Source of the DNA: Candidatus Enterousia sp.
GTDB lineage: Bacteria > Pseudomonadota > Alphaproteobacteria > Rs-D84
DNA length: 48,956 bases
Assembly: GCA_045651445.1 (NCBI GenBank)
Contig: JAZRSI010000056.1
Span: forward strand, 1 to 48,956
Reading direction: 5' to 3'
In this document: positions 4,753 to 41,471 of the stretch, one piece after another
Numbering within the stretch: position 1 is the first letter of the stretch
How the letters are laid out: every line of letters starts with the position of its first letter
Translations under genes and position numbers: made by a program
The notes under the pieces: model-generated
Told to the model about the DNA's origin: nothing
Database searches by the model: none
The model's input: only the letters and a program-made list of their open reading frames with translations

Positions 4753-7488
4753 ATGTCTGAAAATATCAATGAAGTAAACGAAGTAAGGGTTCCACAGTCG
4801 TCATTAGAACACGAAATGCGGACCAGTTTTTTGGATTATGCGATGTCGGTTATTGTTGACCGTGCGTTACCAGATGTTCGCGATGGTTGTAAACCTGTTC
4901 ATCGTAGAATTTTGTACGTTATGAACGATGTTGCGCCTGCGACAAAGCCAACGGTTAAGTCTGCGCGTATTGTCGGTGATGTTATGGGTAAATACCATCC
5001 ACATGGCGATAGTTCTATTTACGAAGCGATGGTTCGTATGGGACAAGATTTTTCCATGGGTGAAATGTTGGTCCAGGGGCAGGGTAACTTTGGTTCACGC
5101 GACGGGGACAAGGCGGCGGCTATGCGTTACACCGAAGCCAGACTTTCAAAACTTGGCGCATCCTTGATGGATGATATGGAAAAAGATACGGTTGATTGGA
5201 TGCCGAACTTTGATGGTTCGTTACAAGAACCGGTTGTGTTGCCTGCGAAGTTCCCAAATTTCTTGGTTAATGGTGGTTCGGGGATTGCGGTTGGTATGGC
5301 GACAAATGTTCCGACTTATAATTTGGGTGAAATTTGTAATGGTATTCTGGCGATTTTGGAAAACAAAGATTTGTCAGATGATGAATTGTTTACGATAATT
5401 CCGGGACCTGATTTTCCAACGGGTGCAATGATTATGGGGCGTGCCGGCGCTTACAAGGCGCATACTACGGGGCGTGGTTCGATAATTGTTCGCTCTAAAA
5501 CACATATCGAAGATTTTCGTGATCATCAGGCGATTATTGTTGATGAAATTCCTTATCAGGTCAATAAGGCCCAATTGATTATAAAAATTGCCGAATTGAT
5601 AAAAGACAAACGTATCGAAGGTATTTCTGAAATTCGCGACGAATCATCCAAGGAAGGTTTGCGTATTGTTGTTGAATTAAAACGTGATGCGATTGCGGAT
5701 GTTGTTTTAAATCATCTGTTTCAGTACACAGAAATGCAAACAAGTTTTCCTGTTAATATGATGGCGTTAAATCGTGGTCGTCCGATGTTATTTAATGTGC
5801 GTGGTGTATTGGATGCCTTTATTGATTTCAGGGCCGAAGTTATACGTCGCAGAACGATTTTTGATTTGAACAAGGCGCGTAATCGTGCACATACTTTGTT
5901 GGGCTTGTCAGTTGCGGTTGGAAACTTGGACGAAGTTATTGAATTAATCAAATCCAGTCCAAATCCAGAAACGGCACGCGAAGCGTTGATTTCACGTGGT
6001 TGGCGTGCATCTGATATTGAATCTTATATTCAATTGATTGACGATCCAAACACAGAATACAAAGACGGAATGTTTTATATGTCCGAAGATCAGGCGCGTG
6101 CGATTTTGGAATTGCAGTTGCATCGTTTAACGGGTCTTGAACGCGACAAGATTCATGATGATTTAACGAATCTTGGTGCGACGATACGTGATTTATTGGA
6201 AATCTTGGGCAGTGCCGAACGCATTATGGAAATTATTCGTGATGAAACAATTTCTGTTCGTGATAATTGGGCGTCCCCACGTCGCACAGAAATTTCTGAT
6301 GCAGAAATTGACATCGATATCGAAGACTTGATTGCGCGCGAAGATATGGTTGTAACTGTTTCTAATACGGGTTATATCAAACGTGTTGCGCTGGATACGT
6401 ATCGTGCACAAAAGCGTGGTGGCAAGGGACGTAATGCAATGGCAACCAAGGATGATGATTATGTCGTTCAAGTATTTGTTGCAAATACTCATACACCATT
6501 ATTGTTCTTTAGTTCCAAGGGATTGTGTTATAAATTAAAGACATATAAATTACCAGAGGCTGCGGCTGCGGCCAAGGGGCGTCCATTGGTAAATCTATTG
6601 CCATTGGAAAACGGCGAAACGATTACTGCGATATTGCCTGTCCCCGAAGAAGATGTCGCACGCGTTACAGAATCTGGCAAAGAACATTTCTTGATGTTTG
6701 CGACGGCGTCTGGAACGGTACGTCGTAATCGTATGTCTGATTTTGATTCGATACGTGCGAATGGCAAGATTGCAATGAAACTGGACGAAGGCGATAGTTT
6801 GATTTCTGTACTGCCGTGTAACGAAGACCAAGATGTATTCTTGGCGACATATCGTGGTCGTGCAATTCGATTCCCTGTGCCGGAAATTCGTGTGTTTGCG
6901 GGTCGCAATTCGACTGGTGTTCGTGGTATTACATTGGGCAAAGACGACAGAATTATTGATATGGCGATGTTAAATCGTGGTGAATCCGATAGTGCAATTC
7001 GTGCGGCTTATATCAAGCAATCTCGTGCGACGCGTCGTGCGGAAACCGGCATCGAAGAAGAAGCAGATTCTGACGAAGAAGAAACAACACTTGTTCTTGA
7101 CGACGCGAAAATGGCGCAAATGGCGGCGGCCGAAGAATTTATTTTGACGATTTCAGAAAATGGATTTGGTAAACGAACCAGTTCGTATGAATATCGTTTG
7201 ACCCATCGTGGTGGTGGTGGTTTCACTAACATTAAACTGGGGGGCAAAAATACGGCTGTTGCGGGTTCGTTCCCTGTAACTGATAACCAAGATATTATAA
7301 TGGTTACAGATGGTGGCAAGATTATCCGTACACCTGTTTCGGATGTAAGAATTGCTGGGCGTTCAACTGCGGGTGTTACATTGTTCCGCACTGCTGAAAA
7401 AGAAAAGGTTGTATCGGCGATTTCAATAGAAGGTGCATCTGACGAAGATGCGGATGTTGTCGAAGCGACTGAAACGGTATCGGAATAA
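4753..7488 (+). CDS. gyrA: DNA gyrase subunit A
   Basis: Canonical N-terminus ([12 protein letters not shown], active-site-region [10 protein letters not shown]) and C-terminal beta-pinwheel repeats. 911 aa. Confidence 0.97.
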
Positions 7489-19401: not shown

Positions 19402-20478
19402 TTACAAGGCACTTCGCAATATTATTTTTATTTCTTCTGGCACATCATAATCCAATGGCGTTTTTCCTGAATTATCACGCAAGCTCACATCGGCACCATG
19501 TTTTATCAGCATAGATACAATCTCTGGTGAAGTGTTGTTGTGTAGCGGGGTACCGCCGTAATTATCACGTGCATTAAGGTCGGCGCCGCACTCAATCAAT
19601 ACCTCAGCAACCTCAGAATTTGTTGCGCAGTGTAGTGGTGATAGACCAAAATAGTCTCTAGCCTGTATATCTGCGCCATATTGTATCAATATTCTGGCGA
19701 TGTTGCCATTTGTTGTGTCGTGCAGTGGTGTTCTTCCAGATTCTGTACGTGCGTTTACATCAGCGCCATGTTTTATTAAGAACTCTGCTGCTGTGGCTGT
19801 TTGGGCTCTATGTAATAATGTTGTGTTAGGGGCGTTGGGTGCGGTTGTTTTCGCTCCATGCTTTATTAAGCAATCGGCTATATCTATGTTTTGTACATGA
19901 CACAAAGGTGTAGTTCCGTATATTTTATCCTGGGCGTTTACATTCGCACCGTGTTTTATCAAAAGCTCTGCTTTTTCAGTGCTTTGAACAAAAAATAAGG
20001 GGGTATAACCTTCTAAGTCTTGCGCATTAACGTCAGCGCCATTGTTAATTAACAGCTTTGCAAAATCTATATTAGTTGTATAAAATAATAAAGTTTTTGT
20101 ATCAAAAAGAGGCGCATTTACATCTACCCCATGTTTTATCAATAATTCTGCAATTTCTATACTTTGAACAAAAGCTATTAAAGGCCACGTGTCACGAACT
20201 AGAAAGTTGAAATCCGCCCCATTTGATATTAAATATTCAGCAATTTCCACCGATTTTACAAAAGATAATGCTGTTCTGCCATCAAGATTTTGGGCATTGA
20301 CATCTGCGCCGCGTTCAATTAGTAGTTTTGCTGCATTCTTACTTTTTACGCAAAACAATGGAGTATTATCATGAGAATCTCGTAAATCAACAATGGCGCC
20401 ATTATCCAAGGCGTTTATCATTTGCTGAATATTATCATCATATATCGCTTGTATTAATTTTTTATTAGCTTCTCGCAT
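19402..20478 (-). CDS. Ankyrin-repeat protein (about ten 33-aa ANK repeats)
   Basis: Repeated G.TPL....(ae)..LI.(H/N)GADVNA motif. The ATG at 20478 with an AAGGA SD is preferred over the TTG at 20502. Confidence 0.85.
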   Translation of the reverse strand: MREANKKLIQAIYDDNIQQMINALDNGAIVDLRDSHDNTPLFCVKSKNAAKLLIERGADVNAQNLDGRTALSFVKSVEIAEYLISNGADFNFLVRDTWPLIAFVQSIEIAELLIKHGVDVNAPLFDTKTLLFYTTNIDFAKLLINNGADVNAQDLEGYTPLFFVQSTEKAELLIKHGANVNAQDKIYGTTPLCHVQNIDIADCLIKHGAKTTAPNAPNTTLLHRAQTATAAEFLIKHGADVNARTESGRTPLHDTTNGNIARILIQYGADIQARDYFGLSPLHCATNSEVAEVLIECGADLNARDNYGGTPLHNNTSPEIVSMLIKHGADVSLRDNSGKTPLDYDVPEEIKIILRSAL

Positions 20479-20759
20479 CGTATGTATCCTTTTGATTACC
20501 AATGAATTATATCACATATATAATGTCTGCGGGATAAAAATCAATGCGTTATGCTGGCCGGCCACAAGCACATTGAATAAAAAGACCGGTTAGAGCAGTT
20601 TTTTATTAGTTTTATAAGATTGTTGTTAGTTCGAATGTTTTTAGAGTGTTATACGCGGTTCGAAAGTGTAAATAACGACATAATTTTTATAAATTTGAAT
20701 TTCGAACTCGCCAAAGTCTTATATTTTTGCTCTCTGGAATGCGCTACGTTTTTGATAAA

Positions 20760-21005
20760 CTATTTCCAAAAATGTCTTTTTGCGAATGCGTGTCCGGAAC
20801 CTGTTTTAAGATATTGTTCAAATTCCAACGCGGCATCTTTCGAACTAAACGCAACATAGTTTACCAATTCCCAAGGTTTATATTTTGCCGTATGTATTGA
20901 ATATCCTGCATTATGTTGCGTTAGTCGTTTTTTTAAATCATCAGTTTGGCCGATGTATTTTTGTTCTGGATGGGAAATGCTTTTTATAAGATAGACATAA
21001 AACAT
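20760..21005 (-). CDS. GIY-YIG nuclease-family protein (small stand-alone type)
   Basis: YVYLIKS...KYIGQTDDLKKRLTQHN matches the GIY...YIG...R..H.N pattern. Confidence 0.8.
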   Translation of the reverse strand: MFYVYLIKSISHPEQKYIGQTDDLKKRLTQHNAGYSIHTAKYKPWELVNYVAFSSKDAALEFEQYLKTGSGHAFAKRHFWK

Positions 21006-21101: not shown

Positions 21102-21120
21102 TGTGGTTGGGGCGCACGGA
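21102..21120. repeat. attL: 19-bp direct repeat TGTGGTTGGGGCGCACGGA
   Basis: Identical to 29473-29491, which covers the 3' end of tRNA-Gln. Confidence 0.85.
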
Positions 21121-21296
21121 CCCCAAACAAATTTACAAAGCGCCGGAATTCTGCGGTTTTTAGTCCCTGTTTTTTGTTGTTTGATACTAAAATTGGTATC
21201 AGTTTTTGTGTGTAAAATTTATACCATAAATAATTACTGCGCGCAACATTTTTTCGTGGGGCGCAGTTCTAATTATTGAAGTCCCAGGAAATGCAC

Positions 21297-21608
21297 ATGA
21301 AAATCACAAATATTGAACTCAACAATACAACATACAACAACATGTCAGATTTATTTAGCGCATTGGTTTCAATGACTATGAATGATTGTGTGGTTGTTGA
21401 TGGTATTCGCGCCGACTATTCAGACGAATTTCCCGACAAAAATGACGTGCAATACCCAGATGGTTTTCGTTTCAAAGATGAAAACGAACAAAAATTAATC
21501 AATGAACACGTATTATCAGAGATAGCAAAACACGCAAAACAACACGACAAAAAAATTATTCATGACGCAATAAGAAAAATTATGACAAACACAAACAATA
21601 AAAAATAA
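21297..21608 (+). CDS. Hypothetical island protein (103 aa)
   Basis: ORF with an AGGAAA-type SD before the ATG at 21297. No family recognised. Confidence 0.45.
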   Translation: MKITNIELNNTTYNNMSDLFSALVSMTMNDCVVVDGIRADYSDEFPDKNDVQYPDGFRFKDENEQKLINEHVLSEIAKHAKQHDKKIIHDAIRKIMTNTNNKK

Positions 21609-21972: not shown

Positions 21973-22491
21973 ATGAAAAAAAATCTGAAAAGAGCAAGAG
22001 TAGAAAGTATAGTCAATTCAATACAGCCAAACTATATGATAACGATACAACTACCACCGGCATACAAATCAAAAAATTTAGATAGATTTAGATTCAATGT
22101 AAAAAAGATTATGCAACAAGTTGAGAAAGATTTGTTGGGAAAGCAATGGCATAAACATCATTATCGCTTTGTGGTGTTCTACGAAAACAAGAACGGATTA
22201 GAACCTTGGCATGCACATGTGCTGTGCAACTTCACAGATAACAAAAACGGTAAAATAGAGAGCTATGACGATATAGAAAAAGCAGTAAGTCGCGCCAACC
22301 ACACTTTCCGCTGCAACAATGGATGTAAAACGGATTTGGATGTTGATGTTAGCTTGTTGGACAATATAAAATCAGTTCAAGATGCTGTGAATTACTGTCA
22401 AAAAGAAGTCTGGCAGGAAGAAAAATCTGTAGAGCGTCAGATACGATTTGAGTTTTCAGAAGAGATTTTTCCCTGTAAGCACAAAACTTAA
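21973..22491 (+). CDS. HUH-endonuclease (Rep-like, rolling-circle initiator) candidate
   Basis: PWHAHVLCNF (His-hydrophobic-His motif) and AVNYCQKEV (YxxK catalytic-Tyr motif) in the correct order. AAAGGA SD. Confidence 0.5.
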   Translation: MKKNLKRARVESIVNSIQPNYMITIQLPPAYKSKNLDRFRFNVKKIMQQVEKDLLGKQWHKHHYRFVVFYENKNGLEPWHAHVLCNFTDNKNGKIESYDDIEKAVSRANHTFRCNNGCKTDLDVDVSLLDNIKSVQDAVNYCQKEVWQEEKSVERQIRFEFSEEIFPCKHKT

Positions 22492-22596: not shown

Positions 22597-22636
22597 AAAA
22601 AATCCCCCTGGTTTGAAGTTTGTCAGGGGGACTTTT
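22597..22636. terminator. Bidirectional terminator (TCCCCCTG...CAGGGGGA) between Rep-like gene and lipoprotein operon
   Basis: Long GC hairpin with an A-run on one side and a short T-run on the other. Confidence 0.7.
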
Positions 22637-22654
22637 GCACATCGGTATAATGCT

Positions 22655-24136
22655 TTATTTTACACCACCGAACGCACCACCAAATCGTAATTCAGTACCG
22701 CCACGGTCTTGTTCAACATAGCCAAATGCCGCTGTTGCTTCTGTTGGTGTACCATTTGCGCCATAATATGTTGTTTCAAACTGTTGCTTGTAAACGTCTG
22801 TACCAACGATGGCCCAGTCTTCATTTTCACCCGTAAAATTAGAAAATTCAAATACCGCATCGTTATCTCCAGAACGGGTAATTTGAACATCATGCCAGTC
22901 AGAGAAAGACATATTTAGCTCTTCTGTCTGTGTGCTTGGGTTGAATGTCAGGGTCGCTTCGGCAGGGGCTAACAGTTTTTCTTCTTCTTCCAGTTTTACG
23001 TTCGCGATGGCTGTACCTGTAAACATCATCTCGGTTGCGTTATCAATATTTTTGACATCAATTTTCTTGTCGTCATATCCGCCTGCAAACATTCCATACC
23101 CAGGATTAGACGAATTGTTAGCCGACAATAATATCTGACCAAAGTCCGAATATTGCAAACCGATATCGCGCCCAAATGTTGTCATGTCTATGCTGTATGA
23201 AACTTCTTGTTCTTCCACATCCGCCAGGGTAATGTCTGATACATCTTCAATACTGCTATAGTCCTGTAATATACGTCTCAACTCTTCGTCTGTTGTTATT
23301 TTTGTAGCGGACATAAATTCGTGTCCATCAACTTCATATCTGTATCCATGGAAAGCAAATTGCGAATTAGTGTTAGAGCGGTCAAAAGTTCCGGCATCTG
23401 ACATATACATCTGTTTGATTTCGCCGTTGTTATCTAATTTGAGTTGAATGTATTCGCCTGCGTCATGGGCATTACCACGATAAAATTTTACACCACTCAG
23501 GTCAAATTCCTTGTATTGCATATCTTCTTTGGTCTGCTCAAAATCGTCTTTCAAGTCACCACCAATAATACCTGCAATAAACCCTGCCAGGCCTGCACAA
23601 TCGTCAGAGTCTAAAAAACTATCAAAATCCCCCGCACTGCCACCAATAAGCGTAAAGGCATCTTTCAGGTCATTGATAAATTTGTTATATGCAGCTTCCC
23701 CTTGTTCTTTGTACTCGTTCAGTTTGGCCAACAAATCTTCGTCCGATTTATCAAACCATCCCATGTGATTAATCTTGCCCTTAGCCCATTCCCAGCGTTT
23801 GTCATTATCCATACCATGACCTGCACGCAAAGAATATGTGGCGGCAGATGTTTCTTCGTCTTGGTATGTTTTGCCCAATGTCTGTTCAACCATATCAATC
23901 AATTCTGCACGATTGTCCAATGCAATACCTGTCACAGATGCATTTGATGCCCGAACAGTATCGCTAATCGTTTCTGTAATCAATACTGGTGCTTCTATGG
24001 TTGGTGTATCTGGGGTGTTTGGTGTTTCTGGAATACCTGGCACATCACCAATGCCGGCACCGCCACCTGAACCGCCACTGCCACCACCACATGCGGCCAG
24101 TGCTAAAACAGATGTCAATAATACAAGTTTTTTCAT
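22655..24136 (-). CDS. Surface-lipoprotein candidate 1 (TbpB/fHbp-like C-terminal barrel; putative Slam/T11SS substrate)
   Basis: Lipobox LALAAC followed by GGGSGGSGGG linker. The C-terminus (...TEATAAFGYVEQDRGGTELRFGGAFGGVK) resembles the terminal strands of Neisserial surface lipoproteins. Confidence 0.65.
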   Translation of the reverse strand: MKKLVLLTSVLALAACGGGSGGSGGGAGIGDVPGIPETPNTPDTPTIEAPVLITETISDTVRASNASVTGIALDNRAELIDMVEQTLGKTYQDEETSAATYSLRAGHGMDNDKRWEWAKGKINHMGWFDKSDEDLLAKLNEYKEQGEAAYNKFINDLKDAFTLIGGSAGDFDSFLDSDDCAGLAGFIAGIIGGDLKDDFEQTKEDMQYKEFDLSGVKFYRGNAHDAGEYIQLKLDNNGEIKQMYMSDAGTFDRSNTNSQFAFHGYRYEVDGHEFMSATKITTDEELRRILQDYSSIEDVSDITLADVEEQEVSYSIDMTTFGRDIGLQYSDFGQILLSANNSSNPGYGMFAGGYDDKKIDVKNIDNATEMMFTGTAIANVKLEEEEKLLAPAEATLTFNPSTQTEELNMSFSDWHDVQITRSGDNDAVFEFSNFTGENEDWAIVGTDVYKQQFETTYYGANGTPTEATAAFGYVEQDRGGTELRFGGAFGGVK

Positions 24137-24159
24137 GTTTTGCTCCTTTTTTGTTGTTA

Positions 24160-25518
24160 TCAGAATCTTTGTTGCATCGTGAATTCTATTGCCGTCTTGT
24201 TATATTCCCGTTGCCATATATTTGAATCCCGTTGTGTATAGCTGAATGTAATTGTTGGTACAAAGCCCCATATATCCAATTTGTTGTTTGATAGTGACAT
24301 GGCATAACGATGTGTAAAGTCCCGCTCGGTTATTTCCTTGAATTGATTGTTATCCACCGTCCAACGCGCATCGTCATACAACGACCAATACACAGACGGT
24401 TCAAAATACGCATGAAATCCCCATGGCAATTCTGCACCCACCCCTACAGATAAACTTGGTTGCCAGTATGCGTATGTTGGACTGGTGGTGTCTTCACGGG
24501 TAATGCCGGCACGAATATTCATATACACACTTGCGCTAAATGAATATGTCAGGCGCGTGTTTGCTGAATAGGTCTGACCGCTCAAAAAATCCCCGTACAG
24601 GTCATATTCGTTATTCATAGCGCGCAGATACAATCCACCCGACAACCTGCGCGTAAAGTCATAATTTGTGTCCAATCGTGCGCCCACAGACCAGTTATAT
24701 TTTTCCCACCCATACCAACGCCGCGCCACAATACCCGCCAACCAAACATCCCCACGATTCCAAACAAAGCGTGGCCCAGTTGATGCACCGATGTACATGT
24801 CGTCAAATTCGTGTTTGTCATATATGTTGCTGTATATGTTTGCTTCTGATTTCCATCGCCACTGGTCAGACAATTTGAATTCATAAGACCCACCCAAGGT
24901 CAGATTTGTCCCGATTGCAGATTCCGGTTCATTCAAATCACGACACATCAGCCCGAACATAGTCGCCACACATTCTTGACCACCGGCGGCATTATTTACA
25001 TTGTTATCTGGCGCAGCCCCAATATTGAACCATACGTTCCAATTCTTATTCTTTCGCACGATATACCGGTAATAGTTCATAAGCCCGCGTGCATTTTCCG
25101 GCAAATCTTTTCCCGCCATGGCAAGGCGCAGATGATAGTCTGCACGTGACCATTGTTCGGTGTGCATATAGCAAGTTGCCAATTCAAACCGTATGCGCGC
25201 CAGGTTTGGTTGGTCGTCCAGTATCTTGCGATATATCTTGATTGCGGATTCATAATCACCGCGTTTTTGGGCAATCTGCGCCAATAAAAACCATCGCTCT
25301 ATTTCCAATGCCACATTATTCATTTTTGGGGTCTGGGTCAGGATTTGCAGCGCATGGTCATAATCCCCATTGTCAACCATTGTTCCGGCCAGTTGCATTG
25401 CCTGTGTCGTGGTCATGGTGATTTCTTTTGGGGTATTTTTTGTTTTGGTATCAGATTTTGCCCAGGTCACCCCAGGCAAAACCATAACCAACGCAAAGAT
25501 TAAACAATACAGACGCAT
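24160..25518 (-). CDS. Slam-family outer-membrane protein (TPR N-domain plus DUF560 beta-barrel; type XI secretion component)
   Basis: Signal peptide. TPR-like helices (GDYESAIKIYRKILDDQPNLARIRFELATCY...), then alternating beta-strand region ending in ...EFTMQQRF. Flanked on both sides by lipoprotein genes. Confidence 0.72.
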   Translation of the reverse strand: MRLYCLIFALVMVLPGVTWAKSDTKTKNTPKEITMTTTQAMQLAGTMVDNGDYDHALQILTQTPKMNNVALEIERWFLLAQIAQKRGDYESAIKIYRKILDDQPNLARIRFELATCYMHTEQWSRADYHLRLAMAGKDLPENARGLMNYYRYIVRKNKNWNVWFNIGAAPDNNVNNAAGGQECVATMFGLMCRDLNEPESAIGTNLTLGGSYEFKLSDQWRWKSEANIYSNIYDKHEFDDMYIGASTGPRFVWNRGDVWLAGIVARRWYGWEKYNWSVGARLDTNYDFTRRLSGGLYLRAMNNEYDLYGDFLSGQTYSANTRLTYSFSASVYMNIRAGITREDTTSPTYAYWQPSLSVGVGAELPWGFHAYFEPSVYWSLYDDARWTVDNNQFKEITERDFTHRYAMSLSNNKLDIWGFVPTITFSYTQRDSNIWQREYNKTAIEFTMQQRF

Positions 25519-26568
25519 TTATTGGGCCGCTTTCCCACCGAACGTAGAATGGAAATGAACGGTATTGCCAATCGCACCTTCCAGGTCATACGCCCCAAGT
25601 TCAGCGGTCGCTTCACTGGCTGTGGTGTCTTCACCATAAAAATTCACCGAAACAAACGCGCCATCCATATCGTCCATAGAAATACGTTCTGACACGTTCG
25701 CCAGTGTAAATGTATCATTTATGGATACGTTGTTTGGATTAGAAAACACCACTGTTTGCCCTGTGCTATCGGTGGCATTGTTGAGTGTGACCTTATACCA
25801 TTTGTCCGCATCAGATTTTGTAAAATCCATTGCCAGTGTGTATTCCCCTGTTGTGCCATTGAATACCAGATTTGCATCGTCTGTGTTTGTTATCATCACA
25901 TCCGAGCCATCTGTATAACTGTCGGCCCCAATTACAGCCACTGCGGCACCAGTAAATGCCTTTGTCCCATTGATTGTTTGGATTTCTTTGTCTGGATTGC
26001 CTGCCAACAGTGCTGACCATGTTGTATCTGTTCCATACCCTGGTGCTATCTCTTTTACATACATCATACCAAAGTCGGCAAATTTCAGCCCAACATGTCT
26101 GCCATAAAGTTGAACCGCACCGTCTTCTAATACTCCTTCATTTTCGCCATCAGGATATTCTACACTTGAAATCTTGCCTGTTTCTGGAACGATATGATAT
26201 GTGACACTGTTTGTTTCGCCTTCTGGGGTTTCCCAAGTTTCTGCCAGTGCAACGATTTGTCCTTTGGCATTGGTTTGTATGGAAAGCCCGCCACCAAATG
26301 TGACATTTTCAACTGGTAAAAAACCATCTATTTCAGGTAAGTCAGGATTTGTTGTATCGTCTTCATTTCCAGAATCCGTCCCTGGATTGTTTGTATCATT
26401 ACCGTTGTTATTTTCGTCACCGGTATTATCGCCCGTATTCGGTGTGTCTGTATCAACGATTGGTGTGTCTGGTGTTGGGTCGCCTGTGTATCCACCACCT
26501 GAACCACCGCTGCCGCCACCACATGCAGCCAGTGCCAGAACAGATGTCAAAATCGCAAGTTTTTTCAT
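25519..26568 (-). CDS. Surface-lipoprotein candidate 2 (putative Slam/T11SS substrate)
   Basis: The first ~25 aa, including the LALAAC lipobox and GGGSGGSGGG, are the same as in candidate 1. Long Asp/Asn/Thr/Gly/Pro linker. C-terminus ...ATAELGAYDLEGAIGNTVHFHSTFGGKAAQ. The stop abuts the Slam start with no spacer. Confidence 0.65.
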   Translation of the reverse strand: MKKLAILTSVLALAACGGGSGGSGGGYTGDPTPDTPIVDTDTPNTGDNTGDENNNGNDTNNPGTDSGNEDDTTNPDLPEIDGFLPVENVTFGGGLSIQTNAKGQIVALAETWETPEGETNSVTYHIVPETGKISSVEYPDGENEGVLEDGAVQLYGRHVGLKFADFGMMYVKEIAPGYGTDTTWSALLAGNPDKEIQTINGTKAFTGAAVAVIGADSYTDGSDVMITNTDDANLVFNGTTGEYTLAMDFTKSDADKWYKVTLNNATDSTGQTVVFSNPNNVSINDTFTLANVSERISMDDMDGAFVSVNFYGEDTTASEATAELGAYDLEGAIGNTVHFHSTFGGKAAQ

Positions 26569-26594
26569 GTATAACTCCCATGTATAAAATTAGA

Positions 26595-26823
26595 CCGCCA
26601 TGGGACATCAGGCGGCCGGGGAGTTCACAAATCAGTATATCGTTGATTCTGTTGCCTTTGGGTTGCCCCTGTTGTATAGCAAACAGCTCCCCGACTTAGC
26701 AAGTCAGGGATAAATAACGACACAAAACCACAGGAATGACATCGGATAACGATGCCATACGCAATTTTGCACCGGATATACTAGGCTTGTGACAGCCCCG
26801 AACCCATATCCCTATGGATTCAA
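26595..26823 (-). promoter_or_regulatory. Conserved structured 229-nt 5' leader, copy 1 (candidate riboswitch or cis-regulatory RNA of unknown class)
   Basis: Duplicate of identical length at 40908-41136. Closing helix, conserved stems with variable loops, minus-strand-only G-U pairs, GGG-GCAA-CCC hairpin, and a 3' hairpin just before the SD/ATG at 26568. Confidence 0.6.
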
Positions 26824-26828
26824 TTCAT

Positions 26829-26857
26829 AGTGTATCAATTAGATTAATCAATTTCAA
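26829..26857 (-). promoter_or_regulatory. Putative sigma70-type promoter for leader copy 1 (TTGAAA-17 nt-TACACT)
   Basis: The -10 ends 5 nt before the conserved block. Copy 2 has the same geometry. Confidence 0.4.
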
Positions 26858-27088: not shown

Positions 27089-27640
27089 ATGAAGTTTTTG
27101 TACGCACGTGTTTCTTCTTTGGGGCAAAACGAAGAACGCCAATTAGTAGATACTGAACAATATGATAGAACATACGTTGACAAGTGTTCCGGCAAAGATG
27201 CAGACCGTCCACAACTGAAAGCCATGATGGACAATTTGCGCACTGGCGACAGTATCACATGTCATTCATTGGACCGCTTGGCAAGAAATACATTTGACCT
27301 GTTGGAATTGGTAAAAAAAATCACTGAATCTGGTTGCTCTGTGGAATTCAAAAAGGAAAATCTGAAATTTGAACCCAATAAAGACAACTGCCTGAACAAC
27401 CTAATGCTGCAAATACTAGGCGCAATCGCTGAATTTGAACGCTCATTAATCAAGACTAGACAGGCCGAAGGAATCGCCATTGCAAAAGCCAAAGGTAAGT
27501 TCAAAGGTGGCAGCAAGAAATTATCCGCCTTTGATGCCGCAGAATTGAAAGAACTGGTGACTAACAAACGCATCAGCATCAAGGAAGCACAAAAGCGCTA
27601 CGGCATCTCCCGCGCATCTGTTTACAACTACATTAAATAA
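27089..27640 (+). CDS. Small serine recombinase (resolvase/invertase family)
   Basis: N-terminal YARVSSLGQN catalytic-serine motif and C-terminal HTH (ISIKEAQKRYGISRASVYNY). 183 aa. Confidence 0.9.
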   Translation: MKFLYARVSSLGQNEERQLVDTEQYDRTYVDKCSGKDADRPQLKAMMDNLRTGDSITCHSLDRLARNTFDLLELVKKITESGCSVEFKKENLKFEPNKDNCLNNLMLQILGAIAEFERSLIKTRQAEGIAIAKAKGKFKGGSKKLSAFDAAELKELVTNKRISIKEAQKRYGISRASVYNYIK

Positions 27641-27667: not shown

Positions 27668-29428
27668 TTATGGTCTCCACATCGGCATCATTGGCCACTG
27701 TCCCATTGCCATCTGCGGAGCTTTCGTTGCGATTATGCGCGCTGCTTCGCTAGAATATCCCATTTTTTCATACTGTTTGATTAGAACCCTTTTTTCTTCG
27801 TCTTCCCGTTTCAAAATCGCCAATCCAGCAGGGTCCGACACCAATTTCAATCCCTTTGGTTGCGTATTGGCATTATTCATTATTTCAGATACAGATTTTT
27901 CACTTTTGCTACTTTTTTGTTTTGCTTTTGGTGCGTTTTCTGGTTGGTCTTGGAACAGAATGTCTATATGTGGAAATGATAGTGTGTTTGCAATTTCTAT
28001 CATTTCTTCACTGGCATTATCGTAATTAATGTTGGTATAAACGCCAAGAGAAATAAAGCGCTTTGAGTGTTTTTGACCAGCAATTGCTTCACATCCAACG
28101 GCACCGGCGCGTGAAACATTTGATGTATAGAACGAGTGTTTCAGCGAATGTACGTCCTGCATAATATCGCCGTCCTTGAACCCCAATGTTTTGAATAGCA
28201 GGTTTAGATTTTCGTTTGCTGTTTGGGTTCTATACCCTGTCTTATTCTTATTTTTTACAATTTTTTCAAACAAGAACGCATCCGGTCCATATTCTTTTTG
28301 TTGTTTTTTTACAAATTCGCAAAAACCTAATAACAATAAAGCATCAGCAATAGGCACCTTGCGTTCAGAACTTTCAGTTTTTAGTTTTTTGAGAGCTTCT
28401 CGTGGGTCATTTTTCTTCAAAAGGTATTTGTCCCTGTGAATCCAGATGTAGTTTTCTTTCAGGTTTATATCACGAATACGCAGGGTATCAATAGCGTTCG
28501 CACGTGCGCCAGTAAACAGCAACAATAAAATTATATAGTAGTAATGCTCAAAGTTGTCGCGTATATTGACCAAGCGTGTGCGTTTCCCTTTGAATTCGTC
28601 ATTTGCTATTATGTCATTTATTGTGCGAAAGTTTCTGTTTTTTAGTTCGTACATCATTGTAAAAAGCTTCTGGAACTTCTTTTCACTGAATCCATCTCGC
28701 ACTGTTGAACTTTTGAAAGCATTCAGATTAATGTCTTCAATTTCTTCAAAGATGGCCGCTTTAGACTTGATAACTTTTTGTCTTCTTGCTTCTGCTATTG
28801 TTTTCTTTAGCACTTTTATTGTCTCCTTTATGGTTTTGGCGGAATATTTTTCGCCTTTGTGTGTGCCTTGTGGGATTTTATAGGCTTCTAACTTCCGAAT
28901 AGCATCGTGTATCATAAGTGGGTCTCGTTCATAGTCTTCCATATAAGGGCTAGCAAAATTATTAATCAGAAGTTCTAATCGCTTTGTGTCGCGGATATAT
29001 TGTGAGCTAGAGTTATGATTTACCCGATTTTTCCAAAAATCTACAATATTGGTTTTGGTGTTTTGTTTCACATTCTTGGTTCCTGCCATGTCGTTTCTCC
29101 TTTCAATGCAGGTTGTGGGGGCACTAACCATCGGCCCTGTTGTTATATAAGAACTGTTCGGAGAAACGTGTTTTGAAAAATAAATAAAAATTTTTTTATT
29201 TTTTTGTGCTGTGCCAATATTGTGCTCTGCATTCAGTATCTGTCTAACTAAATATCGCGCCAAATCGGGGTCACTGGTGTGTAGTGAACGCAGGTATCTT
29301 TTTCCCTTTACCATGCGGCGCAGATAAAAAATTCCATTGCGTACACACAGATTTTTTGCATAAGTGGGGGCCAATTCATTTGATGTAAAATTGGTATCAA
29401 AATCAGATAAAAAAAGAGCTGTCTTCAT
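27668..29428 (-). CDS. Tyrosine recombinase / phage-type integrase (long form, 586 aa)
   Basis: Catalytic-domain pattern (TGARANAIDTLRIRDI ... HSLKHSFYT ... LGVYTNI). Adjacent to the tRNA-Gln target. Confidence 0.8.
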   Translation of the reverse strand: MKTALFLSDFDTNFTSNELAPTYAKNLCVRNGIFYLRRMVKGKRYLRSLHTSDPDLARYLVRQILNAEHNIGTAQKNKKIFIYFSKHVSPNSSYITTGPMVSAPTTCIERRNDMAGTKNVKQNTKTNIVDFWKNRVNHNSSSQYIRDTKRLELLINNFASPYMEDYERDPLMIHDAIRKLEAYKIPQGTHKGEKYSAKTIKETIKVLKKTIAEARRQKVIKSKAAIFEEIEDINLNAFKSSTVRDGFSEKKFQKLFTMMYELKNRNFRTINDIIANDEFKGKRTRLVNIRDNFEHYYYIILLLLFTGARANAIDTLRIRDINLKENYIWIHRDKYLLKKNDPREALKKLKTESSERKVPIADALLLLGFCEFVKKQQKEYGPDAFLFEKIVKNKNKTGYRTQTANENLNLLFKTLGFKDGDIMQDVHSLKHSFYTSNVSRAGAVGCEAIAGQKHSKRFISLGVYTNINYDNASEEMIEIANTLSFPHIDILFQDQPENAPKAKQKSSKSEKSVSEIMNNANTQPKGLKLVSDPAGLAILKREDEEKRVLIKQYEKMGYSSEAARIIATKAPQMAMGQWPMMPMWRP

Positions 29429-29472
29429 TGGTTTTCTGCTAAAAACCTAGAATTCAGCCCCGAACATAAATA

Positions 29473-29491
29473 TGTGGTTGGGGCGCACGGA
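29473..29491. repeat. attR: 19-bp direct repeat TGTGGTTGGGGCGCACGGA within and next to the tRNA-Gln 3' end
   Basis: Identical to 21102-21120. Confidence 0.85.
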
Positions 29492-29548
29492 TTCGAACCA
29501 TGATAAAGAGAACCAAAATCTCTTGTCCTACCATTAGACGACACCCCA
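29475..29548 (-). tRNA. tRNA-Gln (anticodon UUG), CCA encoded
   Basis: Cloverleaf by hand: TGGGGTG/TC/GTCT-AATGGTA-GGAC/A/AGAGA-TTTTGGT-TCTCT/TTAT/CATGG-TTCGAAT-CCGTG/CGCCCCA/A/CCA. Confidence 0.9.
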
Positions 29549-29701
29549 ATTGCGACATTGATTATAATTATTTCTAAAACAAATGCAATAATAAAATTAA
29601 AATTTAATTGATGTATTTATTTTCTTTCATGGGAAATCTTTTTTTTGCTTAAAAAATAATCATATGGGAACAAAATTAAAAAAATGCAGTAATTTCAAGC
29701 G

Positions 29702-29720: not shown

Positions 29721-29782
29721 GCTGGGATTTGCGGCGTTTTTCTGATATAATTCACACTGTATATATACAGAGAGAATTTATC

Positions 29783-30727
29783 ATGAAATCATTATTTTTA
29801 TCGGTGCCTATTTTAATGGCGTTTGGAATAACTTCTTCTATGGCAAGTCAGGCCGCGTTGGATGATGCGTTGCGTGCGACTTATACCGCCTGTGTCGGTA
29901 TTGATGACGAATTGGCGGATTTAAAGAAGATGGCGGGCATAACCACGGCGGTTGGTGCGGTTGGTGCCGGTGTTGGTATTGGTGCGACTGTAACGGGTAT
30001 TGTTAAATCGGCCAAGGATAAAAAGGCGGAATCTCTGGAACAAATTTTAAAAGAAATCGAAGAAATGTCGCAACCGTCTGCGCCGTTGACAGACGAACAG
30101 GTTAATGCATTCTTGTTGGATTTCAACAATGCGTATGAAACGGCTTTGTCTGGCAAATCGGAAATTGAATCCGAATTGGAAAAGACCGTAAAACAATCCA
30201 AGAAATTGGGTAATTGGCGTACTGGGTTGATGGCAACAAATACTGCGACGAACGTTGCTGGCGCGATTATGGCTGGCAAGAACAAGGTTGACGCAGATTT
30301 GACTGCCCAGATAGAATCTTGCAAGGCGGCGATTGTGAACTTGCGCAATGCGGTTATGCAGGCGCGTATGAATGGCATTGATGTTACCGAAGCGACCGAA
30401 ATTGCAAACACTTGCGGTGAATATGAATACGTTGACCTATCTAAAATTAATACCAAGGCCAAAGGCGCAATGATATCTTCGACGATTGGTGCGGCGACGG
30501 GTGCGACTGGCACTGCGTTGTCTGCGGCCGCGAATAGTAACAAGGTTCGCGATGATAACACAGACGATGGCAAGAAGAAAGAAAAGTCAATGAATACGGC
30601 ATCTACGGTATTGGCGGGTGTAACTGCGGCGGCGTCTGTATCATCGACCGTGTTTAGTGGTACACAAATCAAAGCAATTAAACAAGTTGCATCAGTTGCA
30701 GAAAAATGTACGGGGGTATTAAAATGA
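29783..30727 (+). CDS. Exported Ala/Gly/Thr-rich hypothetical protein (314 aa)
   Basis: Signal peptide MKSLFLSVPILMAFGITSSMASQA. Gly/Ala-rich hydrophobic stretches. The stop overlaps the next start (ATGA). Confidence 0.65.
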   Translation: MKSLFLSVPILMAFGITSSMASQAALDDALRATYTACVGIDDELADLKKMAGITTAVGAVGAGVGIGATVTGIVKSAKDKKAESLEQILKEIEEMSQPSAPLTDEQVNAFLLDFNNAYETALSGKSEIESELEKTVKQSKKLGNWRTGLMATNTATNVAGAIMAGKNKVDADLTAQIESCKAAIVNLRNAVMQARMNGIDVTEATEIANTCGEYEYVDLSKINTKAKGAMISSTIGAATGATGTALSAAANSNKVRDDNTDDGKKKEKSMNTASTVLAGVTAAASVSSTVFSGTQIKAIKQVASVAEKCTGVLK

Positions 30728-33700
30728 AGAAAATCCTATTCGCATTATTATCATGTATAACGCTGGCATTGCCTGCCAGCGGTGCAAAGCTTACTTTGGA
30801 TAGTGTTATAGTAGAGGCACCTGTTCTTGAATATGCTGCCAAGGCATTCTTTAAGACAGAAGATTCCAGAAAACAGGTTTTGCAAAAATATCGTGATTTG
30901 TTGGGGACTGGCGCAGCAGGTTTAAATGCACAAAATGCATGGGATGTTTGTGCGGCTGGTGTTGATATTAAGTCCGCAGATGGGCGGAAACAATGTACAG
31001 ATTTTATATCTTATGTAACAAAATATAATAACAAATATTATGATGTTTGTGATAATCTAGGTAGTATTCCGGCCCAGTATCGTTCCGGTTCAAGATGCGA
31101 AAAGGATTTCTTTAATTGGACAAATGTTCAAATGTTGTCTGCGGTTGCTTTGGCACAGGAATACGCCAAAATAAAATGGAACGAAGATATTATTTGTTCG
31201 AACGAATACCGCCAAGGTGGTAATGACGACTGGGTACAGTGTCGTTCATTAAAATCAGGCGTGTTTTTTGAGTTCAAGTTCGACGATGTCCGCGAAAGCA
31301 TAGACGAGACAATAAATAAACATATTGCAAGAGCGTTATGTAAAATTTATGGCGGTGATTCGGTGCTTGAGAGTGTTTCTGGAATATCGTGTCAAAAAAT
31401 AGATAGTTCAGTTTGCCTTTCAAAGTTATCGAATTCTGCAAGTAATTTTGGTATAAATGTAAGCTGGGATACAAAATACAATAGATGTGATTTTAAATAT
31501 AGCATTGTAAATGACAAGAAAAACCTAAAAACATCTTGTGGCATTAACAATTTTATGTATTGTCGTGGAATTCAGGTAGATACAACTGTTGGCCTGCAAG
31601 GTATGTTAAAACAGAAGGTTGCAAAAGATTGTAAAATAGACGTTTCTCAGGTTCGTTGTGATAATACGTTTAAGACATATAAAGGTGAAGGGTGCAATGT
31701 TTCAACATTTGCGCCAAAGGATGATATTATATCGTGTTATTATGGTTCGGAACAAATTGACTTCGTTTTTGATGACGTTAATGAATTGAATAAAACATAC
31801 GCCAACGCAGGAAAACAGGGTGTTCTTTGTTTAAATAGCGATGGGTCTTTTGATGGAAAGAATTGTGTTGCTTTGGATAAAGCATCTTGTGATATCATGA
31901 TTTCACAATCTAAGGATACATGTCCAGAATGTAAATCGATATATTGGGATACGGAAAAAAATCTATGTGTTATTCCTGATGCGGTTACTGCCACAAATCT
32001 TGAAAAAGGATTAAAGGTTACGGGAACGATTGTAACAGTCGTTGCAGGTGTGGCACTTGGCGTGGTAACGGGTGGTGCCGCCACAGGTGTTTTGGTTGTT
32101 GTTGGGAATTCTCTTTTAATAGGCGGTGGTGCCGCAGTTATCACTAGTGAGATTGTTATACAATCTACCGTATGGCGTAATTTTGTAGAAAAGGCCCAAA
32201 AGTGCATTGTAGATAAAGATGCAAAGTGCGCAGAAGATTTGGTAACAAACGAACTAAATCGGATGATGAGCTATTCTGAAGAACTAACTGCTGCAGAAGC
32301 TGCTGCATTGGATGATGTTATGTATAAGTTAGTTGATATGATACCGGATGATTCTCCGTTTTGGACAGAATTTTTCGGTAATCCAGAATTCTTTGATTGC
32401 GACCCTAGTGGTGAAAATTGTACAGTAAAGGAATCCGCGCAGTTATGGCAGATAATCGAAGTAGCTGGGAATGTTGCAATGATTGCTGGCGGCTTACTTA
32501 ATATGATTGCGCAATTTAAAACAGCACTCCAGAAAACTTCAGAGCTAATAAAACTCCGTGTTACGCAACATCCAACTGCTAAGACACCACTGGGTCAATT
32601 AAGCTACGTTTCAATGAGTGGCGGAAAAGGACTTGTTGTTGCAAACAAAGAAATCGCAATTCTTGCTAAAGATTTAGGAATGTCCACAATTACCAGTAAT
32701 TCACAATTTGTTAAAGCAATGGGATGGAAAATTGGTCAAGAGCTATGGTTTAATCCTACAACTAAACAGTTCCTTACTTCTGTTGGGGGAGGGTCATTAA
32801 AAGGCCTTATCCCAATGACAATTGGTACAGGTGGTCTTTTGATGGAGATAGGTAGCGATAGTCCATTCTTCTTATCGCGTCCAAAGGCCAAAGACGAAAC
32901 ACCGATTGAGCCGGTAAAACCCGTTGATCCAATTGAGCCAGTTAAACCTGTTGATCCAATTGAGCCGGTAAAACCTGTTGATCCAATTGACCCAGTTAAA
33001 CCTGTTGATCCAATTGAGCCGGTAAAACCTGTTGCGCCTGTTGCTCCGGTTGAACCTGTAACACCAGTTGTTGCGCCAACGGAAACACCTGCGCCGGTAT
33101 CTGTGGCACCAATTGAACCGTTGAAAAATGTCGAACCTGTGAAAACAGAAAAGAAGCGTAATACTGCGGCAATTGCAATTGGGTCTGTGTTAGCGGTTGG
33201 GGCAACTGGTGGTTTGGTCGGCGGTTTGGTCGCCAAGAACAAGCGCGACGAACGCCGTGAAGCAAACAAGTTGACGACTGTTCCTGTGGCAACACCATTT
33301 GTCGGGGCGGGTAACCAATTAACAAATGAAATGAATGCGTTGTTGGGAACTGCCGGCGGTGTGTTGGGATATGTAAACGGAAAAGAATTGAAGTTAATCC
33401 CATTGCCAACAGTTGTTAATACATATTCAACAATTGTGCAAATTAACGTTCGCGCGGTTGTGGTTGTTGATTACAATGGATACAAGTTACCGTACTATGT
33501 TGAACCAACGGCCGGTTCTTGGCGTCCATTGTTGGGAATTGGTCAAATGGGTGGTTGGTTTAATACATATCCATCTGATACGGGAATTACCACAATTGAT
33601 TCTATTACTAATACATTGAATCAAATTTTGGCGCCTGCAAATGTATCAAAGTTTGTCGGCGGTGCGGCGGGGGCATCATTCCCTGTTGCGGCACCTGCGG

Positions 33701-33822
33701 CTTATCAAATAATAAATGCAGAATTCCCAAATGGTGTGGTCCAGACTTATAATGGAACATTCACACCGGCGGACCAAGCGTTATATAATTCAAATTATAA
33801 TAAAATGAAAAACGCATTATAA
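30724..33822 (+). CDS. Very large exported/membrane Cys-rich protein (1032 aa) with two TM-like Gly/Ala/Val segments and a Pro-rich 9-aa repeat
   Basis: Signal peptide [25 protein letters not shown] coupling to the upstream gene. Terminator at 33832. Confidence 0.75.
32902..33033 (+). repeat. In-frame 27-bp tandem repeat (about 5 copies; PIEPVKPVD units)
   Basis: ccgattgagccggtaaaacccgttgat reiterated with synonymous variation. Confidence 0.85.
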
Positions 33823-40420: not shown

Positions 40421-40876
40421 TTATTCCGAAACACCAATACTGTTGAACATTTGGATTCTCGTATTAACATTGGTACAGAAACTAAGATCTCCAATAGAAC
40501 AATACAAAGAACAGTTTTTAGAACAGTCTGTGTTAGTTGTGTGTTTGGCTCTTTGTACCCAACCTGAAATGACGGGATGCGATATTCTGCAGTAACAGAA
40601 TATACGATTTTCGCCATTTGCATCAACCCCACTTAGCCCCGGGGAAAATTGTTTTTGGTTAACCTCGGTCTGGGAAACGCATGTTGCCTCACCCGCAAGA
40701 CGTCCGTACGAAAACTGTGCCCACCACGACCATTCTGCGGCGTTGTTGCCAGTTGAACTGCATTTAACCTGTGGATCAAATACCAGCACCATAACATTAT
40801 CACGTGCGCACATATCTGTTGCATTTGCAAACATTGGTGCCGTACAAATTAACGTCGTAAAAATAATTTTTTTCAT
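40421..40876 (-). CDS. Small secreted Cys-rich hypothetical protein (151 aa)
   Basis: AGGGGATG SD. Signal peptide MKKIIFTTLICTAPMFANA. Preceded by leader copy 2. Confidence 0.65.
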   Translation of the reverse strand: MKKIIFTTLICTAPMFANATDMCARDNVMVLVFDPQVKCSSTGNNAAEWSWWAQFSYGRLAGEATCVSQTEVNQKQFSPGLSGVDANGENRIFCYCRISHPVISGWVQRAKHTTNTDCSKNCSLYCSIGDLSFCTNVNTRIQMFNSIGVSE

Positions 40877-40907
40877 TTGTATCATCCCCTGTGTAAAAAA
40901 AATTAAA

Positions 40908-41136
40908 CCGCCAAGGGATTCTAAGCGGTCGGGGAGTTCACAAATCATTCTGTTATTGATTCTGTTGCTTTTGGGTTGCCCCTATTGTATAACAAACAGC
41001 CCCCCGACTTTTATATAGTCAGGGATAAATAACGACACAAAACCACAGGAATGACATCGGATAACGATGCCCCCATATTTTGTACCGAACAGAACGGGCT
41101 TGTGACAGCCCCGAACCCATATCCCTATGGATTCAA
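40908..41136 (-). promoter_or_regulatory. Conserved structured 229-nt 5' leader, copy 2 (ends in a hairpin plus U-run terminator)
   Basis: Same length and architecture as 26595-26823. On the minus strand, CCGCTTAGAATCCCTTGGCGG is followed by TTTAATTTTTTTT. Confidence 0.6.
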
Positions 41137-41199: not shown

Positions 41200-41471
41200 G
41201 TCATCCCTGCGCAGGCAGGGATAGGGACTATAAGTTTCCCCGCCACCGCCGACCCCCGATGTGGGATAGTTCCCCTCCATTGGAGGGGTGTCCGCAGGAC
41301 GGGGTGGTTAGAGCGTTCGTAATTATGCACCTATATACCGCACTCTCTTACCACCTCCCGGCTGCGCCGTACTCCTCCAACGGAGGAGAACTTCTTTTTT
41401 TGCCTGCACCACGAAGTTTTAACGAAGTGGTGTGATCCCTGGGCAGGCAGGGATAGGGACCTTAAAATTTA
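41200..41471. repeat. GC-rich palindromic (MITE-like) element cluster
   Basis: TCATCCCTGCGCAGGCAGGGATAGGGAC at both ends (41201, 41433). CACCACGAAGTTTTAACGAAGTGGTG hairpin. Internal CCCCTCCattGGAGGGG and CTCCTCCaacGGAGGAG hairpins. Strongly GC-rich against an AT-rich background. Confidence 0.7.

Follow-up and report, generated by a model that had tools for sequence, protein, structure and literature searches.

A probable three-gene type XI (Slam) secretion operon with a structured RNA leader on a tRNA-Gln integrative island of a reduced-genome gut alphaproteobacterium

Results

We analysed a 48,956-nt stretch of DNA from Candidatus Enterousia sp. (contig JAZRSI010000056.1 of assembly GCA_045651445.1; all of it is referred to here as the window), and found on its minus strand a predicted operon of three genes for type XI (Slam) secretion, which lies on an integrative island at tRNA-Gln. 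The gene for a Slam protein is bracketed by genes for two lipoprotein candidates, LP2 upstream and LP1 downstream, and a promoter candidate and a structured RNA leader lie ahead of LP2 (Table 1). An earlier sequence-only reading had described three tightly packed minus-strand genes, the outer two encoding proteins with a common N-terminus, a lipobox Cys, a Gly/Ser linker and ends in FGGVK or FGGKAAQ, and had noted that the stop of LP2 abuts the Slam start; all of these features are present in the sequence and its translations. Inspection of the junctions shows that the LP2 stop codon, TAA, runs directly into the ATG of Slam, with no spacer, and that the TGA of Slam is followed by a 23-nt spacer, which holds an AAGGAG ribosome-binding site, and then by the ATG of LP1. 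The operon closes with a terminator-like hairpin 3' of LP1, which our terminator scan missed as its loop exceeds 8 nt. The same three-gene arrangement was found again in independent assemblies, and this recurrence, resting on homology, rules out chance as its explanation. No relevant tandem repeat was found within the module, and we therefore rejected phase variation by simple repeats.

By its domain matches, the middle gene is a canonical Slam with a TPR domain and a DUF560 barrel, as the sequence-only reading had proposed. Residues 160-452 match Pfam PF04575 (SlipAM/DUF560) along all 288 positions of the model, at 125 bits (cut-off 22), and the N-terminal part matches PF24575 (TPR_Slam) at 38.3 bits (cut-off 35.2). 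Several generic TPR families also match residues ~37-135, and the predicted TPR domain, which would be periplasmic, spans ~37-150. The N-terminus (MRLYCLIFALVMVLPGVTWA/K) is signal-peptide-like as read from the translation, not by a dedicated predictor, and the C-terminus (...TMQQRF) ends in Phe, the aromatic last residue typical of outer-membrane barrels. A PDB sequence search with this protein found no solved Slam structure. NCBI contig JAZSNY010000018.1 (GCA_045536625.1) carries a gene for an identical Slam.

The two lipoproteins begin alike, with MKKL(A/V)(I/L)LTSVLALAACGGGSGGSGGG, and in both of them the lipobox LALAAC, whose Cys is Cys16, is followed by GGGSGG. At the DNA level the 5' ends of the two genes form an 87-nt direct repeat of 84% identity (24060-24146 vs 26492-26578), while the shared N-terminus is ~92% identical as protein and the DNA differences are synonymous, which argues for conservation at the protein level and not for a recent copy. 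We therefore rejected recent gene conversion as the source of the shared N-termini, an explanation that is also contradicted by the retention of the same peptide family-wide. M1, L11, L13, A15, C16, G17, G18 and G19 are invariant in an alignment of 56 family sequences, and the lipobox LAAC and the GGGSGG that follows it are nearly invariant across alignments of 56 and 54 members that are elsewhere ~30% identical. The C-terminal ~200 residues of LP1 and LP2 are also homologous (27% identity, E = 7e-10); motifs that recur in this part of the family are GLKYSDFG, FAGGY, FxGxAxG, a W-Y pair, YYGDNxxPxEAxG and a final FGG, seen here in the ends FGGVK and FGGKAAQ.

Homologue searches returned 72 relatives of LP2 and 83 of LP1, nearly all of them metagenomic and named at source only as 'hypothetical protein [Alphaproteobacteria bacterium]', and with a family profile, searched against 5.8 billion proteins, the count was at least 138 clusters at 90% identity. 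Among the 120 family-profile matches listed, none carried a Pfam domain. Pfam and NCBIfam scans of LP1 and LP2 gave nothing meaningful (the sole matches were to the Gly-rich linker or the signal peptide), and neither protein matched TbpB_B_D (PF01298) or an fHbp/GNA1870-type domain; a Pfam scan of 54 family members likewise gave no TbpB_B_D or other cargo domain at E <= 0.1. PDB searches, whether with the single sequences or with the family profile, matched only artificial GGGSGG linkers. Judged by these sequence comparisons, LP1 and LP2 belong to a previously unannotated family.

We therefore turn to predicted structure, since cargo membership rests on it where neither Pfam nor PDB gives a sequence match for the cargo barrel. 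AlphaFold2 models were built on the family alignments. The LP2 model (mean predicted local distance difference test score, pLDDT, 78.9) is disordered at residues 1-73 and all-beta, mostly with pLDDT >90, over the rest, giving a layout of signal peptide, lipobox, ~55-residue disordered linker (Gly/Ser, then Asp/Thr/Asn/Pro-rich), beta handle and C-terminal barrel. The LP1 model (mean pLDDT 85.4) carries the same signal peptide, lipobox and linker ahead of an alpha-helical domain (~59-205), which is followed by a beta handle (~217-353) and an eight-strand predicted barrel (~370-492). The secondary structure of the models places eight long strands, the predicted barrel, after a beta-rich region at residues 370-492 of LP1 and 202-347 of LP2. 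In Foldseek searches, the best match of LP1 was the TbpB C-lobe (5kkx, E = 6.4e-7, probability 1.0), followed by TbpB (4o4u/3hol), HphA (8glo), fHbp (8bk2), NHBA (6cuj, C-terminal barrel; template modelling score, TM-score, 0.67 on target) and PmSLP (9b3e); the top matches of LP2 were HpuA (5ee4, E = 1.6e-4), TbpB (3hol), NHBA (6cuj) and PmSLP (9b3e). Foldseek probabilities for the lipoproteins against TbpB, HpuA, fHbp, PmSLP and NHBA were 0.97-1.0. These top matches are experimentally established Slam cargoes, plus NHBA with the same barrel, and Slam cargo is defined by the pattern of a lipoprotein that has an eight-strand barrel and is encoded next to a Slam (PMC5449769; PMC12282271). In their models, LP1 and LP2 thus have the same handle-plus-barrel fold as established Slam cargo, which the sequence-only reading had anticipated. 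Its description of the two as 'TbpB-like' holds at the level of the fold and no further: each model is one handle-barrel unit and not the two lobes of TbpB/LbpB, TbpB_B_D is matched by none of the members scanned, and the locus has no TonB-dependent receptor partner.

The adjacency of lipoprotein and Slam genes extends to at least 10 distinct related loci from uncultured gut and rumen Alphaproteobacteria (Ca. Enterousia, order Rs-D84). By tblastn with the window proteins, a family lipoprotein stands immediately 5' of Slam in L001, L004, L007, L009, L011, L012, L016 and L017, and the two lie within a few kb of each other in L008 and L018. Slam identity to the window copy is 96% in L001, 94% in L007 and 60-72% in eight further loci (L004, L008, L009, L011, L012, L016, L018 and copies), and L017 keeps the pairing although its Slam is only 29% identical.

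Beside this transporter the cargo candidates vary. Residues 1-210 of LP1 are 83-100% identical per 30-residue block to the 505-510-aa orthologues in L001 and L007, and residues 211-493 only 13-53% per block, so that the handle-barrel half is ~28% identical overall to orthologues whose Slam is 94-96% identical; the downstream lipoproteins of L001 and L007 are 92% identical to each other throughout. DNA identity to L001 breaks at about 23486 and returns only at the island end. The upstream slot is variable as well: its lipoprotein has 349 aa in the window, 312 aa (70% identity) in L001, 566 aa (36%) in L007 and 308 aa in L140, where the Slam is identical. As far as sequence comparison can tell, the transporter is conserved while the cargo is exchanged as cassettes, and the swapped part of LP1 is its handle-barrel half.

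Ahead of LP2, the promoter candidate abuts the 5' edge of leader conservation, and the leader ends in an intrinsic-terminator-like hairpin (GGCCGCC, 26611-26617, with GGCGGTC, 26593-26599; GACCGCC/GGCGGTC in the element) and a U-rich run; this hairpin lies 15 nt before the LP2 start codon, just ahead of the ribosome-binding site. A second leader copy, 85% identical, is found at 40896-41135 (-), and the leader recurs in most related loci ahead of family lipoproteins, with the order leader, lipoprotein, Slam in L001, L004, L007, L012 and L017. When metagenome contigs were scanned by pattern and then with nhmmer, with 120 fetched rumen and gut contigs (L019-L138) taken in, the count came to about 90 copies, 75 of them unique; L001 holds three inside 8 kb. 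The distance from a copy to the first long downstream open reading frame (ORF) is mostly 0-30 nt and occasionally up to ~125 nt, and the genes behind the copies mostly encode signal peptides or lipoboxes, with some GT2-type glycosyltransferases among them.

Covariation was assessed on 63 distinct leader copies with a structure of 57 pairs in 10 helices. Paired cells made up 96.8%, vs 35-47% when the partners were slid, and cells with changes on both sides numbered 389 vs 33-66 in the slid controls; 0/500 shuffles reached the observed values. RNAalifold called 22/39 pairs covarying, several pairs show all four Watson-Crick types (e.g. CG 23, AU 17, GC 14, UA 8), and the minimum free energy of the window leader is -96.4 kcal/mol (z = -5.2). 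The leader is a real, multi-copy structured RNA. The sequence-only reading had pointed to a structured leader as the controlling element and had recognised no Fur-type site; structure and absence of a recognisable site both hold, the best Fur-box match in promoter and leader having 7/19 mismatches, which equals background, and control by the leader is probable.

Two other identities for the leader were considered and rejected. In Rfam 15 no family reaches its gathering score on it, and the sole match, sRNA-Xcc1 (RF02221), covers its full model on the 3' half of five copies at 36.6-41.7 bits (37 bits for the leader ahead of LP2), below the gathering score of 53 (a whole-window Rfam scan loses this weak match); we therefore do not regard the leader as a known RNA. 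Nor is it a mobile repeat of the MITE/REP (miniature inverted-repeat transposable element/repetitive extragenic palindrome) kind, since its orientation is always that of the downstream gene and its helices covary as RNA. The Xcc1-like closing stem (GGUCGGGGAG with CUCCCCGACC) overlaps the 5' arm of the terminator and cannot form together with either the covarying long-range helices or the CCCUGACC/GGUCGGGG hairpin; from these overlapping, mutually exclusive stems we infer that the leader may be a two-state attenuator with an effector. The gene behind the second window copy (40421-40876, -) encodes a cysteine-rich protein of 151 aa that carries a signal peptide (MKKIIFTTLICTAPMFANA...) and matches nothing in Pfam. 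Upstream of that copy, at 41200-41450 (-), lie two near-identical intergenic palindromes (…TCCCTATCCCTGCCTGC(C/G)CAGGGAT…) ~230 nt apart, which may be a REP-like element.

The operon lies on an island with the marks of integration. The 19-nt repeat that overlaps the tRNA-Gln gene consists of the last 17 nt of that gene plus 2 flanking bases, and its exact second copy bounds an element of ~8.4 kb, which includes the operon, an integrase, a resolvase and two small ORFs. The integrase adjoins the tRNA gene and matches Pfam Phage_integrase at E = 1.5e-5 (25.3 bits, slightly under the 27.1 cut-off); the resolvase gene sits between it and the operon promoter. Gene order is identical in L007, a Ca. 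Enterousia metagenome-assembled genome (MAG; integrase 65% identical, lipoprotein, Slam, lipoprotein). In L001 the module lies at the same tRNA-Gln (96% DNA identity to 29179-29599), with the integrase reduced to an 83-aa stub, and in L004/L005 (Slam 72% identical) it also adjoins tRNA-Gln and the same efflux locus. Occupation of this site down to 72% Slam identity argues for an old or recurrent resident and not for a recent, strain-specific acquisition; the tRNA-Gln site is long-standing or repeatedly targeted in the lineage. The tRNA-Gln island of the sequence-only reading is thus borne out by integrase, resolvase and 19-bp repeat, though not as a single, one-time gain. Cluster-1 genes of the type XI secretion system (T11SS) also co-occur with mobile genetic islands elsewhere (PMC12282271).

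The closest named relatives of the lipoproteins come from Candidatus Enterousia MAGs and other gut and rumen Alphaproteobacteria MAGs, in keeping with the alphaproteobacterial origin suggested from the sequence, and the host is a gut alphaproteobacterium with a reduced genome, close to Candidatus Enterousia. Members of Ca. Enterousia (order Rs-D84) are described as fermentative, with genomes of <~1 Mb that lack the tricarboxylic acid (TCA) cycle and a respiratory chain and encode many hypothetical membrane proteins (PMC12306168). GC content is 40.1% for the window and 44.1% for the module.

Within the island, the two small ORFs (21276-21608, +, 110 aa; 21973-22491, +, 172 aa) have no family match. 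A Fic-domain gene holds their position in L001, and this part of the island has been replaced along with the 3' half of LP1; just inside the attR-like repeat, window 21171-21297 is 87% identical to L001 13315-13441. Just outside lies a gene for a 366-aa protein that consists nearly throughout of ankyrin repeats (Ank_2, 162 bits; 19402-20502, -), whose DNA holds nine copies of a unit with ~90-nt periodicity and which adjoins a GIY-YIG nuclease gene (20760-21005). On the other side, between tRNA-Gln and the MarR-efflux operon, 29729-33822 (+) encodes 332- and 1038-aa proteins without Pfam match; the equivalent place in L001 (3836-6265) encodes an 809-aa protein, also without Pfam match, with a divergent leader copy upstream (6280-6535), unlike the window genes, which have none. 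The remaining window is housekeeping: 5S rRNA, GyrA, YidC, ComEC, pyruvate kinase and a MarR-OEP-RND efflux locus. The 5S rRNA gene (8-122, +; 75.6 bits) stands at the very start, so that the first part of the window is the tail of an rRNA operon.

Table 1. Features of the operon and of its island in the window
Feature	Position	Strand	Basis or description
Sigma-70-like promoter candidate	26829-26857	minus	Consensus scan; TTGAAA, 17 nt, TACACT, extended TG
Structured 5' leader RNA	26583-26822	minus	~240 nt; copies and covariation
LP2 (upstream lipoprotein candidate)	25519-26568	minus	ORF, 349 aa
Slam	24160-25518	minus	ORF, 452 aa
AAGGAG ribosome-binding site of LP1, within Slam-LP1 spacer	24143-24148	minus	Sequence inspection
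LP1 (downstream lipoprotein candidate)	22655-24136	minus	ORF, 493 aa
Operon-closing terminator-like hairpin	22597-22630	minus	Sequence inspection; CCCCCTG, 13-nt loop, CAGGGGG, then ATTTTTT
tRNA-Gln(ttg)	29475-29548	minus	ARAGORN
attL-like copy of 19-bp direct repeat	29473-29491		TGTGGTTGGGGCGCACGGA on + strand; overlaps tRNA-Gln 3' end
attR-like second copy of 19-bp repeat	21102-21120		19/19 identical; far island end
Tyrosine-recombinase-type integrase	27668-29428	minus	Pfam Phage_integrase; 586 aa, adjoining tRNA-Gln
Serine recombinase (resolvase/invertase type)	27089-27640	plus	Pfam Resolvase, 120 bits; 183 aa

Discussion

We consider it probable that LP2, Slam and LP1 form a functional Slam-cargo operon, and by analogy with characterised systems the lipoproteins are probably placed on the cell surface by this Slam. 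Along the published pathway (PMC5449769, PMC9090332), in which Slam is the translocon for unfolded cargo held by Skp (PMC9090332), LP2 and LP1 would be exported by Sec and lipidated at Cys16, cross the periplasm unfolded, and then be passed through the Slam barrel or along its side; their C-terminal barrel would be the recognition module. They would end lipid-anchored on the outer leaflet, where the long flexible linker would hold their folded domains off the surface. Transcription would start at the promoter ~290 nt upstream of LP2 and would have to pass the ~240-nt leader, which probably switches the operon on or off: the terminator-containing fold would be the OFF shape, an sRNA-Xcc1-like three-way junction, whose closing stem captures part of the terminator, would be the ON shape, and an effector would select between them. 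The most likely role of the lipoproteins is contact with, or capture from, host or partner cells, diversified by cassette-like recombination.

Other readings of the two lipoproteins have to be weighed against this one. They could be ordinary periplasm-facing lipoproteins that merely share an island with a Slam serving some other substrate or role, adjacency then reflecting co-inheritance. Such an arrangement would fit the missing sequence-level match to known cargo domains, and about half of examined Slam loci lack an obvious adjacent lipoprotein cargo (PMC5449769). We nevertheless regard it as improbable, since the pairing persists with Slams only 60-72% identical, and in one locus 29%, the genes are translationally abutted, and the predicted fold is that of proven cargo.

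Alternatively, the lipoproteins could act like TbpB, LbpB or HpuA, as co-receptors of bipartite iron or haem piracy that hand a host iron protein to a TonB-dependent transporter. Their best structural matches do include TbpB, HpuA and the haemophore HphA, and metal and haem pathways are often found together with cluster-1 T11SS loci (PMC12282271). That likeness, however, is one of a shared scaffold and not of a ligand-binding site, and the proteins are one-lobed and not two-lobed. When the 23 largest ORFs of the window were scanned against Pfam, none matched a TonB-dependent receptor domain (Plug, TonB_dep_Rec), and neither such a receptor nor a TonB or haem-oxygenase gene was found in the island or the 49-kb window; TbpB expression in Neisseria is reported to be under iron control (PMC9090332), and no Fur-box-like site rises above background here. 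The host lineage, moreover, is reported to be without a respiratory chain and TCA cycle (PMC12306168). With no receptor found in the window and no Fur box in promoter and leader we rejected iron piracy as very unlikely; LP1 and LP2 are most likely not part of a TbpA/TbpB-type iron receptor. Release as soluble secreted factors, like haemophilin-type T11SS cargo, is hardly credible: the T11SS can export unlipidated soluble cargo (PMC8406197, PMC12282271), and HphA and haemophilin are among the structural matches, but a lipobox Cys follows a typical lipoprotein signal peptide in both proteins and essentially all members, and its invariance predicts lipid anchoring.

Several observations weigh against our preferred reading, a leader-controlled Slam operon whose two lipoproteins are its cargo. 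The cargo barrel was detected neither by Pfam across 54 members nor by PDB profile search. Global TM-scores of the lipoprotein models against known cargo are modest, at 0.2-0.5, with 0.5-0.67 for barrel-only NHBA chains; disordered linkers and an extra domain account for the low global values, and we therefore claim the same scaffold and not close similarity. A handle-barrel identity of ~28% beside a Slam identity of 94-96% fits awkwardly with the barrel as a conserved, Slam-specific address, and in the published model the handle-barrel half is the conserved targeting part (PMC12282271). As for the leader, nhmmer detected none at the lipoprotein-Slam pairs of L009, L011 and L016, so that it is not obligatory, and the two-state model draws on the complementarity of its segments and on their likeness to an Rfam family.

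A bolder reading joins the two most unusual features of the locus, and we put it forward tentatively, as a possibility that falls somewhat short of an even chance. The leader would represent an undescribed, riboswitch-like class of transcription attenuator built on an sRNA-Xcc1-type three-way junction, governing a surface- and exported-protein regulon in the sub-1-Mb Rs-D84 gut Alphaproteobacteria (Slam cargo, other lipoproteins, cysteine-rich secreted proteins and glycosyltransferases); and Slam would accept interchangeable, ~28%-identical handle-barrel cassettes by way of a few conserved motifs, not of a matched barrel.

These results extend Slam/type XI secretion, known mainly from cultured pathogens and symbionts, to an uncultured gut lineage whose genomes of <1 Mb are thought to make it dependent on other cells. 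Most of the interest lies in the mosaicism of the cargo and in the leader RNA. A large cargo family, recognisable only by predicted structure, escapes domain-based cargo prediction, and near-identical Slams beside very different handle-barrel modules amount to a natural experiment on what Slam recognises. The operon leader, for its part, is one copy of an abundant, covarying RNA found before surface-protein genes, and as such offers a handle on surface regulation in unculturable bacteria.

Comparison with known systems

Slams are present in all proteobacterial classes (PMC5449769), and the Neisseria, Moraxella and Pasteurella systems (Slam1/Slam2 with TbpB, LbpB, fHbp and HpuA; PmSlam with PmSLP) resemble the present one in their TPR plus DUF560 protein, in their adjacent cargo genes, in cargo with a lipobox, Gly-rich linker, beta handle and C-terminal eight-strand barrel (here predicted), and in highly variable cargo beside a conserved transporter. 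Unlike these systems, ours belongs to an uncultured, reduced-genome gut alphaproteobacterium; its cargo candidates are single-lobed, bear no Pfam or InterPro-type signature and bracket Slam as a pair of genes; no TonB-dependent receptor partner was found for them in the window; and a long structured RNA leader stands ahead of the genes, with no Fur box found.

In the T11SS cargo catalogue of Grossman et al. 2025 (PMC12282271), which includes alphaproteobacterial cases (Sphingomonas surface proteins and Rhodobacteraceae loci), cargo consists of an N-terminal effector, a beta 'pedestal' and a C-terminal eight-strand barrel, a three-part layout like the one predicted here; in some of its architectures the N-terminal part is alpha-helical, as in LP1, and in some it is long and disordered, as in LP2. 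That catalogue was built on genes with co-occurring Pfam domains, above all TbpBBD, and the present family would therefore escape it. In contrast to the catalogued layout, it is the pedestal-barrel half that varies here among close relatives, and the helical N-domain that is 83-100% identical.

The nearest counterpart of the leader is sRNA-Xcc1, along whose entire 87-position model its 3' half aligns. In both, a stem of GUCGGGGAG with CUCCCCGGC closes the fold, two hairpins lie inside it, and the motifs AUACAA and UUUGNGAAC are present; in integron cassettes and APSE phage sRNA-Xcc1, too, precedes a gene that runs in its own direction (bioRxiv 10.1101/2025.06.18.660453; PMC7313666). The leader differs in a further 5' domain of ~150 nt, with covarying long-range helices that are rivals of the Xcc1-like closing stem, in the terminator at its end, and in its occurrence in multiple copies ahead of exported-protein genes in Alphaproteobacteria. 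Set against known Slam systems, what differs at this locus is a cargo family that sequence comparison does not detect, single-lobe cargo without a TonB-dependent partner, the exchange of handle-barrel modules, and an RNA leader.

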